From: Acidimicrobiia bacterium
GTDB taxonomy: Bacteria; Actinomycetota; Acidimicrobiia; Spongiisociales; ZC4RG35
Direction: 5' to 3'
Length of the DNA stretch: 42,643 nucleotides
NCBI GenBank assembly: GCA_037969415.1
Contig: JBBKXI010000024.1
Coordinates: 1 to 42,643, forward strand
Part shown: one piece after another, positions 21,288-24,298 of the stretch
Layout of the letters: each line of letters begins with the position of its first letter
How positions within the stretch are numbered: the first letter of the stretch is position 1
Made by a program: the position numbers and the translations under genes
Notes under the pieces: generated by a model
What the model was told of the DNA's origin: nothing
Database searches by the model: none
Seen by the model: only the letters and a program-made list of their open reading frames with translations

Positions 21288-22535
21288 ATGACATCTCTGG
21301 ACCTAAGAAATTCGGCAAATCGCCGCGACAGGCTCACCAAACTCCGTCTCGAACGTCTTGTCCCTCGACTTATGAAGGATGCAAAGATCGATTGTTGGAT
21401 CCTGGTGTCTCGGGAATATGCAGAAGACCCGGTGGCCCAGTCGATGCTGCCAGCAACATGGATGTCGTCGAGGCGGCGGACAATCCTCTTGTTTCTGTCG
21501 GGCGAAGCAGAATTCGAGCGATCGGCCATAACTCGCTACGAAGTCGACGGGCTCTTTCCAGCTGGTTGGGACCCCGAATTGCAGCCCGACCAGTGGGATG
21601 CCGTGAGAGAGCGGGTCGTCGCGGCCAATCCAGCAACGATCGCCATCAGCACGTCAGAGTCGTTTGCCCATGCCGACGGGCTGACTCAAACCGAGTTCGG
21701 CCAGCTTGTCGCCGCTCTCGGATCGGGACTCGGCGACCGGATCGTCTCCGGGGAGGCTCTCGCCGTTGGATGGCTCCAGACCCGGATCCCGGAGGAAAAA
21801 CCTGTGTTCGAGGAGGCATGTCGCCGCGCCCATCAGATTCTGCGACGGGCGTTGTCACCAGAGGCGATTAAACCTGGTGAGACAACCACCAGGGACCTTG
21901 AGTGGTGGCTCCGTGACGAGGTCCAAGTGTTGGGATGTCCGGTGTGGTTCCATCCGTCGGTTTCGATTCAGCGTCGTGGAGCGGACCTCAGGGGTTCATT
22001 CGCTTCGGTCACCCGCGATGTTGCAATTGATCGAGGTGATCTGGTCCATATCGATTTCGGAATCGTCTGGGACCATCTCTGCACTGACCAACAACAACAG
22101 GGATACGTCTTACTCCCCGGAGAGACCGACATCGCGGACGGCCTCGATCGGGCAATGCAGATGGCGAACCAGGTTCAGGACATCCTCACGAGCAACTTCA
22201 GATCGGGGTCGAGCGGCAACGAAGTCCTCGCCGTCGCCCGCCAGCAAGCCAGTGCGGCCGGTCTCAATCCCACGATATACACCCACCCCATCGGGTACCA
22301 CGGCCACGGGGCCGGAGCCACCATTGGCCTGTGGGACCAACAGGACGGCGTTCCCGGATCCGGAGATGTCGCGCTCTTCGAACCGTCGGCATGGTCGATC
22401 GAATTGATGAACCGAACGGTTGTTCCAGAATGGGACAACCAGGAAATCGGCATCATGCTCGAAGAGGACGCCTGGTTTGAGGGCGAGATTGTGGAGTTCG
22501 TCGACGGAAGGCAGACCGAAATCTGGACGATCTAG
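21288..22535 (+). CDS. M24 family (Xaa-Pro aminopeptidase-like) metallopeptidase
   Basis: Metal ligand motifs HIDFG, TDQQ, YTHPIGYHGH, WSIE, MLEED. Confidence 0.88.
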   Translation: MTSLDLRNSANRRDRLTKLRLERLVPRLMKDAKIDCWILVSREYAEDPVAQSMLPATWMSSRRRTILLFLSGEAEFERSAITRYEVDGLFPAGWDPELQPDQWDAVRERVVAANPATIAISTSESFAHADGLTQTEFGQLVAALGSGLGDRIVSGEALAVGWLQTRIPEEKPVFEEACRRAHQILRRALSPEAIKPGETTTRDLEWWLRDEVQVLGCPVWFHPSVSIQRRGADLRGSFASVTRDVAIDRGDLVHIDFGIVWDHLCTDQQQQGYVLLPGETDIADGLDRAMQMANQVQDILTSNFRSGSSGNEVLAVARQQASAAGLNPTIYTHPIGYHGHGAGATIGLWDQQDGVPGSGDVALFEPSAWSIELMNRTVVPEWDNQEIGIMLEEDAWFEGEIVEFVDGRQTEIWTI

Positions 22536-22545
22536 ACCGTCTCAC

Positions 22546-22598
22546 CCGTTCTGTGAACGGTTTTGGTCTGCACAGCACAATTTTCCTTCACAGAACGG
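22546..22598. repeat. 12-bp perfect inverted repeat (REP-like element or convergent terminator)
   Basis: CCGTTCTGTGAA (22546-22557) ... TTCACAGAACGG (22587-22598) just after the peptidase stop. Confidence 0.6.
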
Positions 22599-22603
22599 TT
22601 TGG

Positions 22604-23043
22604 GAAAAAGGTCCAGACGCGAGAAGGTCCCGAGGGAGCTTTGACCGAAGTCTCTACCCTCTCGGGACTCTCGTCCGTTCGGTGCTAGGCCGGGGACCCA
22701 ACTCCGATCGGTAACTGTCGACCGAGGTCGGCAGCCCGTGCGATCCGAAGACCACACTGTCTGTGCGACCCGAAAGCCACACTCTCGATCCGAAGACCGA
22801 GGAGTCGATGAACCCGAAAGTTCACCTGTTGGAAGATCCGAAGATCTTCCGGTAAATCCGAAGACTCACCTTGGTCTCAGTTCCGTTCGACGATCCCGAA
22901 GGATCCCCGCCCGGGTAACTGGTCCCGGCCCTGAGCGTCCGGTTTCCCTTCTGCTCCGGGTAGCCGTCCCTGCGATTCAACGGTCCGGCTTTCGCCTTTC
23001 CGATCCTCGCTGGTCCGGTGCCTCCGGGTTTCCCCATCGGCGT
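22604..23043 (-). ncRNA. Predicted large structured ncRNA 'A' (~440 nt) with UUCG hairpin array
   Basis: 8 UUCG, 1 CUCG and 3 GAAA tetraloop hairpins on minus strand; many G-U wobbles that favour minus strand; long-range stem 22688-22698 with 22921-22930; own promoter; ends in CUUUUUC; no credible ORF. Confidence 0.8.
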
Positions 23044-23050
23044 GACCGGA

Positions 23051-23079
23051 AAAGTAGACCGCGACCCGAGGTTAGGCAA
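23051..23079 (-). promoter_or_regulatory. Primary-sigma promoter of RNA A
   Basis: TTGCCT (23079-23074), 17 nt, TACTTT (23056-23051); predicted TSS about 23043. Confidence 0.7.
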
Positions 23080-23086
23080 ATCGGGA

Positions 23087-23129
23087 CCGTGATTGATTTT
23101 CGCGAACCCTTTTTTGGTTTTCGCGAACC
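23087..23129. promoter_or_regulatory. Upstream motif CCGTGATTNNTTTTCGCGA plus TTTTCGCGAACC direct repeat
   Basis: Same motif at identical offset upstream of promoter B; 12-mer repeated at 23097 and 23118 (21-bp period). Confidence 0.55.
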
Positions 23130-23153
23130 TCAAATTTTCACCGCGTGGCGTCT

Positions 23154-23343
23154 GAAAAAGGTGCCAGAACGCGAGAAACCCCGAAGGAGCTACGACCGAA
23201 GTCGCCGCCCTCTCGGGGTTCTCTGACCACCTCACCAGGAAAGCGGGCCCCTGGATGGGGTGGTCTCGAAGAGACCGAAGTCCCTCCTATCCAGAACAAC
23301 CGAAGTTCTTCTTTCCCCGATATGGAGTCTCCCCCATTTCGGT
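23154..23343 (-). ncRNA. Predicted structured ncRNA 'B' (~190 nt), partial paralogue of RNA A
   Basis: Five consecutive hairpins (GAGA loop, three UUCG loops, one long imperfect stem); last ~70 nt homologous to 3' end of RNA A; own promoter. Confidence 0.75.
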
Positions 23344-23349
23344 AACGGG

Positions 23350-23378
23350 AAGGTAAATGAAGCACCGTCTTCCGTCAA
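23350..23378 (-). promoter_or_regulatory. Primary-sigma promoter of RNA B
   Basis: TTGACG (23378-23373), 17 nt, TACCTT (23355-23350); predicted TSS A at 23343. Confidence 0.75.
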
Positions 23379-23464
23379 CAAGAACCCGTGATTACTTTTC
23401 GCGACCTCTAGGTTTTCGTCCGCCCTCCACGAATCTGTCCCAGGCCGTCCTTATTATCAGAGAA

Positions 23465-24298
23465 ATGGTCCCGGTAAGAATTGAAACAACGACCGAAACA
23501 AACCAACCCACCACCGGGTTGACAACACTCTCGCCCAGCCGCGCCGGTGACTTCAAAACCTGTCCCCAGCTATTCAAGTTTCGGGCCATAGACAAGCGTC
23601 CCGAACCGACCACCGTCTACCAGGCACGAGGCACCACCGCCCATCTTGCCCTGGAACGCTTCTACGATCTCCCGGCTCCCGAACGCGATCCGGACACTCT
23701 TTTCGACCTCTTCCGTCAGGCCTGGACCGAGCTCCGCAGCGAAGATGAATACAAGGAACTGTTCGAGACCGCAGAGGCCGAGTCGGCCTGGGGTGTCGAA
23801 TCGATGAAACTCCTGGCCAACTACTTTTCTATTGAGGATCCGCGGCAAGTGGAGCCTTTTGACCGCGAAATGGATATGACCGAAGATCTCGACGGGATCG
23901 TTATCCGTGGAATCCTCGACCGAATCGACCGTGATGACGATGGGAGGCTGGTGATCACAGATTACAAGACGGGCAAGGCCCCACCCGAACGCTATGCATT
24001 GCCTGCCTTTTTCGCCCTCAAGATCTACGCTTTGTTGATCCGTAATCGGACCGGGGAGACACCCAAAGAAGTGAGGCTTCTCTACCTCAACGGGCCTACC
24101 CTCTATCGTCTCCCCGTCGACGACAAGCAACTCGACGCCATCGACAGCCAACTCCGGGCGTTGTGGGCGGCTATCGAAAGAGCCATGTCCTCGGACAACT
24201 ATCCGCCGCGACCGGGGCGGTTGTGCGACTGGTGTTCGTTCCAGGACATCTGTCCCGCATTCGCCAACAGCGAGTTACTCCTGGCCGATTCGGCTTAG
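23465..24298 (+). CDS. Stand-alone RecB-family PD-(D/E)XK nuclease (Cas4/AddB-like, 4-Cys)
   Basis: LSPS..FKTCP, RGTTAH, RGILDRID, ITDYKTG, CDWC-x5-C; ATG 23465 is 7 nt after TATTAT. Confidence 0.9.
   Translation: MVPVRIETTTETNQPTTGLTTLSPSRAGDFKTCPQLFKFRAIDKRPEPTTVYQARGTTAHLALERFYDLPAPERDPDTLFDLFRQAWTELRSEDEYKELFETAEAESAWGVESMKLLANYFSIEDPRQVEPFDREMDMTEDLDGIVIRGILDRIDRDDDGRLVITDYKTGKAPPERYALPAFFALKIYALLIRNRTGETPKEVRLLYLNGPTLYRLPVDDKQLDAIDSQLRALWAAIERAMSSDNYPPRPGRLCDWCSFQDICPAFANSELLLADSA

Follow-up and report, generated by a model that had tools for sequence, protein, structure and literature searches.

The window analysed here is a 42,643-nt stretch of DNA from Acidimicrobiia bacterium (assembly GCA_037969415.1, contig JBBKXI010000024.1, positions 1 to 42,643), a representative of the widespread, mostly uncultured actinobacteria of the class Acidimicrobiia. 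By a crude tiling of open reading frames (ORFs), its largest gap lies between the genes of an M24 peptidase and a PD-(D/E)XK nuclease, and holds on the minus strand two cassettes of one layout: one or two upstream boxes, a TTGNNN-17-TACNTT promoter, a 5' hairpin with a GNRA loop, a series of UUCG-capped hairpins and a shared 3' module. Comparison with related genomes shows that the cassettes encode two members, RNA A and RNA B, of a real and new family of tandem structured small RNAs with their own promoters, restricted, as far as sampled, to one order. A preliminary description, made from the sequence of the window alone, had proposed an independently promoted, partly paralogous RNA pair in two minus-strand cassettes of the same layout, and this proposal was borne out: boxes, -35 and -10 elements could be located for both units, no Rfam family matches them, and they are conserved with covariation. 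The features are as follows.

23350–23404, minus strand: promoter of RNA B, with box TCGCGAAAA at 23404–23396, -35 TTGACG at 23378–23373, a 17-nt spacer and -10 TACCTT at 23355–23350
23154–23343, minus strand: small RNA B, the short form, ~176–190 nt; 5' end at 23343 predicted from promoter geometry, 3' end predicted just past the 3' hairpin
23317–23342, minus strand: 5' hairpin of B with a GAGA (GNRA) loop, from folding; helix 1 of the short-form alignment A2, with compensatory changes in 8 of 10 pairs
23165–23227, minus strand: 3' module of B, a helix of CCCGAGAGGG with GCUYNCUCGGG plus an apical UUCG hairpin; 75.7 bits with covariance model R1
23051–23126, minus strand: promoter of RNA A, with distal box at 23126–23118, proximal box at 23105–23097, -35 TTGCCT at 23079–23074, a 17-nt spacer and -10 TACTTT at 23056–23051
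22604–23043, minus strand: small RNA A, the long form, ~430–440 nt; 5' end at 23043–23044 predicted from promoter geometry, 3' end predicted past the 3' hairpin
23020–23041, minus strand: 5' hairpin of A with a GAAA (GNRA) loop, from folding and the long-form alignment
22719–22905, minus strand: array of eight successive hairpins in A (seven with a UUCG cap, one with CUCG), from folding and the genus alignment
22614–22676, minus strand: 3' module of A; 74.9 bits with R1
22536–23465: gap without a credible ORF, ~930 nt, bounded by the stop codon of the M24 peptidase gene and the likely ATG of the nuclease gene at ~23466
23466–24298, plus strand: PD-(D/E)XK (RecB/Cas4-like) nuclease gene, divergent to the RNAs; Pfam PF12705, E 1.3e-37
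21288–22535, plus strand: M24 peptidase gene, convergent to the RNAs; Pfam PF00557; a different gene in other genera

The two RNA genes of the window

The gap had been described at the outset as the largest of the window and free of credible ORFs, and both points held. A single larger stretch in the tiling turned out to be taken up by an ORF of 425 aa. No long conserved ORF runs across 22536–23356 in the ORF list, and Pfam recognises none of the ORFs inside the gap (137, 162 and 75 aa). Given this, the longest open frames that vary in frame, place and length across the 13 loci of the genus, and the 1- and 2-nt indels in the genus alignment of the long form, a coding reading of the gap was rejected.

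Folding of the minus strand goes well beyond chance, at -94 kcal/mol for B (z -4.49 against shuffles) and -215.9 kcal/mol for A (z -5.24), in agreement with the dense hairpins first reported there, while the plus strand gives -74.9 kcal/mol for B (z -2.87, 19 kcal/mol weaker) and -170.3 kcal/mol for A (z -0.29). The richness in stable tetraloops was likewise real, with counts that had to be revised. Instead of 11 UUCG we found 13 on the RNA strand within the two RNAs (8 in A and 5 in B), 12 of which sit on stems of 3 bp or more; the density of CUUCGG is 13.5 per kb here versus 0.59 per kb per strand genome-wide (23-fold). Where four GNRA loops had been counted, six cap stems, with two of them, those of the 5' hairpins, backed by covariation and two to three others representing alternative folds of the 5' strand of the 3' module. 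The number of hairpins in the array of A varies among species of the genus via hairpin duplications, which shows, for UUCG-capped arrays, growth by duplication within an RNA gene. GATC is about twofold enriched in A and was not used further.

The promoter of A has two boxes, 21 nt apart, and that of B has one. A scan for consensus promoters reported none in the region because the -10 boxes lack the consensus it demands, and a terminator scan returned only unrelated terminator-like sites. At the 3' ends, UUUCUC or UUUUCUC adjoins the stem of the 3' hairpin without a gap, and this hairpin probably also ends transcription. The UUUUU that the preliminary description gave as the end of each unit is present past both modules of the window; as a family trait it did not stand, with a T-run of at least 5 past only 7 of 63 modules.

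Where the preliminary description had suggested mapping stranded metatranscriptome reads, assembled RNA libraries were compared, and they hold RNA A in the form of contigs that carry neither strand nor mapped ends. Contigs from the RNA libraries of four studies cover 22673–23035 of RNA A at ~96% identity, among them four whole free-standing contigs of 361 nt (22673–23033), 350 nt (22677–23026), 231 nt and 218 nt. Their upper ends lie at 23026–23035, 8–17 nt inside the predicted start of A, with no loose ends there. Other contigs of the same runs share only the 33-nt piece 22882–22914 and presumably come from relatives, since this piece is a hairpin that is invariant in all 15 long forms. At 88% likeness, the four RNA runs gave no contig on RNA B, the 3' modules or the flanking genes apart from 22276–22308 (33 nt), a result that says nothing on expression. 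The index search returned small shares only (0.05–0.09) and was not used for habitat.

A conserved RNA family in one order of Acidimicrobiia

Searching the whole window against Rfam 15 at gathering score gave no matches, to 6S, raiA, OLE, ROOL and GOLLD, among the families proposed for checking at the outset, or to any other Rfam family. With E values up to 10, positions 22400–23600 matched only mir-3524 (16.6 bits), on a palindrome at 22546–22598 beyond RNA A, which is noise. ARAGORN found no tRNA or tmRNA in the window. The covariance models of 6S (RF00013), which matched control genomes, and of 6C (RF01066) had no match in the window or in the 93%-complete source genome, and genes for Hfq, CsrA and Ro/TROVE were not found in that genome. 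The literature that we searched, with supplements and subscription journals outside its scope, held no described small RNA for Acidimicrobiia, nor these RNAs or their box.

The direct repeat between A and B is 44 nt long at 82% identity, and as a covariance model (R1, built from 60 distinct copies in alignment A1) the shared 3' module measures 63 nt; the sharing is thus as first described, and the length of ~70 nt given then is not. Its 5' strand, CCCGAGAGGG, is invariant in the 60 copies. The 3' strand shows only changes that keep the pair (G-C to G-U) or that face an unpaired A, and one G·U pair is invariant (60 of 60 copies). Compensatory changes were seen in 7 of the 18 module pairs, the outer and apical helices both covary, and one example pair occurs as A-U in 36, G-C in 14 and G-U in 9 copies. 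R1 scores 60–80 bits on the RNA strand versus ~30–39 bits for the opposite-strand echo.

Support for the remaining fold came from alignment A2 of the short form, comprising 28 units from 13 genera, in which 21 of 34 pairs have compensatory changes. In this alignment 93.9% of cells are paired versus 84.8% in shuffles, changes on both sides are found in 21 pairs versus 13.3 in shuffles, and none of 500 shuffles attained the observed value on any of five measures; slid controls were 33–61% paired. The elements supported are the 5' hairpin, the penultimate hairpin and the 3' module. For the long form (15 sequences), in which single hairpins are duplicated in some species, 36 of 118 predicted pairs show compensatory changes, so the covariation among homologues that had been set as a check was found for both forms. 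A long-range pairing in the long form, between 5' GCGAG and the 3' tail CUCGC, is possible in the model and has little covariation. The fold z-scores, the invariant or frequent G·U pairs and the strand gap in R1 scores argue for the minus strand as the RNA strand, and the comparative evidence points to a conserved structured RNA there.

Order-wide conservation is limited to two elements, the 5' GNRA hairpin and, in the 3' hairpin, a lower helix of invariant sequence; the middle varies in size and sequence, and columns beyond the terminal hairpins are almost never conserved throughout the order. Within family f1 some loops are invariant as well: the penultimate hairpin of B has the C-rich GGCCCGCUUU, and for A the invariant sequences are GGGUCCCCGGCC and UCCCCGG. 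Every unit follows one plan, with one to two CGCGAAA boxes at a fixed distance from a sigma-70-type promoter, the 5' GNRA hairpin, a variable set of UUCG- or GAGA-capped hairpins and the 3' hairpin. As a working definition of the family we took three features, namely a CGCGAAA box 18 nt before the -35 element, a GNRA-looped hairpin at the 5' end and the CCCGAGAGGG helix within the 3' hairpin, and both units of the window have them all.

By BLAST, 34 of 41 relatives match the locus (a tally that includes the unpublished genomes G027 and G038). Nearly all genus members (11 of 12) carry the whole region at 71–89% identity, and distant relatives match to the 3' module only, typically two to three times at a distance of a few hundred bases. 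With R1, the module was identified in 35 of 36 sampled genomes of the order, across seven families (f1 14/15, f9 7/7, f2 5/5, f12 5/5, f5 1/1, f6 2/2 and f11 1/1), and outside the order there were two weak matches among ~114 genomes of the class. Three genomes missed by BLAST (G021, G033 and G026) have the module by unfiltered search, in shortened form in G033 and G026, where the apical hairpin is lost and the invariant helix kept. As far as sampled, the family is restricted to one order of the Acidimicrobiia and nearly universal within it.

The locus is single-copy in the source genome. The usual arrangement is one of 2–5 tandem paralogues, with predicted unit lengths of 153–553 nt. Recent duplicates within a genome reach 99% (G028) and 94% (G029) identity, and the A and B types are old enough to be common to several genera of family f1. 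One genome, G012, has the whole two-RNA locus twice (C14:18627–19454 and C76:7675–8494, with 89% and 87% identity to the window), which may reflect two strains binned together rather than a duplication.

To place the family in its genomic setting, 80 loci were gathered via closely related nuclease proteins, mostly from Acidimicrobiia bacterium and all from metagenome bins. The modules lie divergently upstream of the nuclease gene in 70 of the 80, another arrangement was found in four, and six have none, three of these with less than 330 nt of upstream sequence. The neighbour on the other side of the RNA array varies among loci. In five genomes of other orders an orthologue of the nuclease is present at 35–37% identity, and upstream of it there are no boxes, hairpin array or module. 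The nuclease ORF of the window begins at 23357 in the ORF list and would run over the promoter of RNA B; because the Pfam match starts only at residue 57 and relatives align from ~23501, its true start is probably the ATG near 23466. At the far end of the gap, the perfect 12-nt arms of an inverted repeat, 29 nt apart, lie at 22546–22598, just past the stop codon of the M24 peptidase gene, and on the plus strand a shorter hairpin, with TTTTGG after it, resembles a terminator of that gene.

Promoter boxes shared with replication genes

The arrangement of the promoters proved to be constant across the family. In 56 of 63 units we found CGCGA(A/C)N, exactly 18 nt, TTGNNN, 16–18 nt and TANNNT, with an identical box spacing in all 56, and a second box lies ~21 nt further upstream in 45 of the 63. 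When this box-promoter pattern was searched in 41 genomes, there were 114 matches versus one for the reversed control, and the double box gave 66 matches versus two, with the unpublished G027 and G038 included in both tallies; five genomes of other orders yielded one box-promoter match in total. The box positions, at ~-61 and ~-82, would suit an activator as the factor that binds them.

We examined the genes downstream of 37 sites outside the RNA loci (17 + 20), three of which proved to be RNA units themselves. The double box precedes dnaA in six genomes (G000, G011, G036, G020, G025 and G002) and the class II ribonucleotide reductase gene in three (G025, G036 and G031), and the box-promoter precedes the latter gene in three further genomes (G040, G029 and G017). 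Before dnaB, Pfam-confirmed, the box-promoter was found in G000 and G011, and promoter sequences near-identical to it are among the pattern matches of nine more genus members. A protein of 262–269 aa follows the box-promoter in six genomes (L151–L156, from G040, G029, G028, G039, G017 and G023); the two copies scanned (L151 and L155) have no Pfam family. These six promoters contain a CGAAC-N4-GTTCG palindrome between -35 and -10, which we take to resemble the actinobacterial LexA box. The other sites lie before a 5'-nucleotidase gene and several genes of no known family. An Rfam scan of six other box-promoter loci gave no match, and in three more only a weak AsdA match, below the cut-off, was returned.

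From this architecture, common to dnaB and the class II ribonucleotide reductase gene and with double boxes at dnaA, we infer that the RNAs belong to a replication/repair promoter group. One box-binding factor would then link replication and dNTP supply, and probably also repair, with the RNAs and the divergent nuclease.

Several box sites have features of their own. At three loci (L160–L162, from G031, G037 and G026) the box-promoter is followed by a conserved leader of ~70–80 nt holding AAGGUGC...GUUCGGGGAAGUGCGGGG; it has no Rfam family at gathering score and is a possible cis-regulatory RNA. The class II ribonucleotide reductase gene behind the box-promoter at L159 (G017:C105) has a match to an intein splicing domain, with its barrel domain interrupted. 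Between units at L020 (G028:C104), more than six CGCGAC/TCGCGA-like repeats lie within ~90 nt before the proximal box of long units and may be an expanded array of binding sites. At 22614–22625 and 23165–23176, and in relatives, the DNA directly past the 3' hairpin reads TTTCTCGCG; on the opposite strand this is a near-copy of the upstream box (CGCGAGAAA versus CGCGAAAA), and most of the RNA genes are therefore bracketed by a box and an inverted near-box.

Possible modes of action and relation to known RNAs

The explanation that we favour, and hold on balance to be probable as a whole, combines a new RNA family, its place in a replication/repair promoter group and protein binding in trans. A single box-binding factor would control transcription of the RNAs, of dnaB and of the class II ribonucleotide reductase gene, with double boxes also at dnaA, and the RNAs would act in trans as protein-binding RNAs that titrate or scaffold their partner. 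This last step is the weakest, and protein binding as such we propose only tentatively. The partner would recognise the invariant helix of the 3' hairpin, marked by an A mismatch and a G·U wobble, together with the 5' GNRA hairpin; the hairpin array would confer nuclease resistance and, perhaps, valency, and the 3' hairpin with UUUCUC would probably serve as terminator as well. Because only the terminal hairpins are kept, and the helix is kept despite apical loss, recognition of structure by a protein is favoured over a single base-pairing seed. The unusual promoter shared with DNA-replication genes hints at a role in the control of replication or repair.

A number of points weigh against this explanation. 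No protein partner was identified, the locus has no linked gene for an RNA-binding protein, and the source genome, at 93% completeness, yielded no Hfq, CsrA or Ro/TROVE gene. UUCG tetraloops are usually structural rather than protein-binding, the invariant loops within f1 (C-rich in B and GGGUCCCCGGCC in A) would suit base pairing, and the invariance of the terminator stem could stem from some other constraint. The regulon is drawn from promoter motifs, and the dnaA boxes lie farther from the likely promoter than those of the RNA units do. All genomes used are metagenome bins, and the contigs from RNA libraries are supporting evidence rather than proof, as they show neither strand, ends nor level and DNA may contaminate such libraries.

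The main rival would make these RNAs base-pairing regulators of the 6C type, in which C- or G-rich loops and linkers pair with mRNAs, perhaps those of replication genes, without a chaperone, and the 3' hairpin is only a terminator and stability element. It draws on the invariant loops within f1 (GGCCCGCUUU in B and UCCCCGG in A), on the 3' hairpin stem running directly into UUUCUC or UUUUCUC and on the promoter common to dnaB, nrdJ and dnaA. That no Hfq was found fits the chaperone-free G-C pairing of 6C, and dnaB is a target of 6C (PMC6486639). However, there is no order-wide seed, only two terminal hairpins being conserved; a terminator stem with one strand invariant across the order exceeds the needs of a terminator; and the 6C model matched neither window nor genome. 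Comparison of the conserved loops with the dnaB leader, for complementarity by eye only, gave no convincing match, and we regard this rival as rather unlikely. Improbable, in our view, is a role as RNA-polymerase-binding RNAs, 6S- or Ms1-like, that stand in for 6S RNA, for which the 93%-complete genome gave no match. The new RNAs reach an abundance that allows assembly from RNA libraries; Ms1 too has short terminal hairpins, and genuine Ms1 RNAs can lack BLAST-detectable similarity (PMC9130861). Yet the flanking genes are not the HAD-IB hydrolase/oxidoreductase pair of Ms1 loci, the consensus folds are consecutive local hairpins with no central bubble or rod closing 5' to 3' end, and a unit length of 153–553 nt would be odd for a promoter mimic. 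Ms1 and 6S, moreover, build up in stationary phase (PMC9130861), whereas the promoter of the new RNAs is one that genes of growth and replication also have.

That the array is instead not RNA at all, being DNA palindromic repeats or a regulatory region of the nuclease gene with incidental transcription, is nearly excluded. Many hairpins are indeed near-palindromic in DNA and no more than ~60 nt separate the first box from the start of the nuclease gene, but folding and model scores are asymmetric between the strands, the G·U pairs would be A·C on the opposite strand, and compensatory changes are frequent. Nor would this reading suit downstream units with their own promoters far from the nuclease gene, a single locus in the genome rather than dispersed repeats, or orthologous nuclease genes of other orders that lack the array.

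The favoured explanation, of a new RNA family in a replication/repair promoter group that binds protein in trans, can be carried further into a proposal that we consider speculative and improbable. The RNAs would be the RNA arm of an order-specific replication/repair regulon, titrating the box-binding activator or RNA polymerase via the 3' helix, and the feedback loop might include the inverted near-box with which each RNA gene ends. If true, this would give feedback on the expression of replication genes, with a principle like that of 6S and Ms1 operating in a replication regulon. The family merits attention as one that is nearly universal in an order, assembles from environmental RNA libraries and has a promoter tie to dnaA, dnaB and ribonucleotide reductase. 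It offers two handles, of which one is the new structured RNA itself, with a helix of unusual invariance, and the other a new cis-element that seems to delimit a replication/repair regulon among bacteria whose gene regulation is obscure.

Among known systems, the preliminary description had pointed to a much elaborated relative of Ms1, and this part of it is not supported. Ms1 is ~300 nt long and forms a 6S-like rod with a central bubble and short 5' and 3' hairpins, and its loci are searched for by synteny with HAD-IB hydrolase/oxidoreductase genes, which carry the annotation 'inhibition of morphological differentiation' (PMC9130861). Ms1 and 6S resemble the new RNAs as abundant, highly structured actinobacterial non-coding RNAs with their own promoters, Ms1 also in its terminal hairpins (PMC9130861). 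The differences are in the flanks (here an M24 peptidase and a PD-(D/E)XK nuclease), in the fold (here predicted strings of local hairpins in tandem paralogues of 153–553 nt) and in the promoter, which the new RNAs share with replication genes; Ms1 is set apart on synteny and predicted fold. With 6C, reportedly tied to the SOS response going by the title of a 2016 article by Pahlke, the likeness is one of setting. It is an actinobacterial small RNA that acts without Hfq and, through its target dnaB, is connected with DNA replication, with panD as a further target (PMC6486639). It differs in having two hairpins with C-rich loops, whereas the new RNAs, 2–6 times longer and without a 6C model match, have mostly UUCG and GNRA loops and a helix as their conserved element.

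Other comparisons concern the arrangement of the genes. RsmX/Y/Z and Qrr1-5 are paralogous, sometimes tandem RNA genes with an upstream activator site at fixed distance, repeated hairpins and a conserved terminator, and the new genes share this plan, each with an upstream site at a fixed distance from its promoter. They differ in box, factor and phylum, and a sponge of the CsrB/Rsm type was rejected, as no CsrA gene was found in the genome and the loops are UUCG and GNRA, not GGA. Bacterial Y RNAs, which act with Ro/Rsr, are likewise structured, often tandem and linked to DNA-damage responses; this identity too was rejected, given the lack of a TROVE gene in the genome, of an Rfam match and of a tRNA-like domain. 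The new family nevertheless falls within a known kind, that of the stable structured bacterial small RNA with its own promoter.

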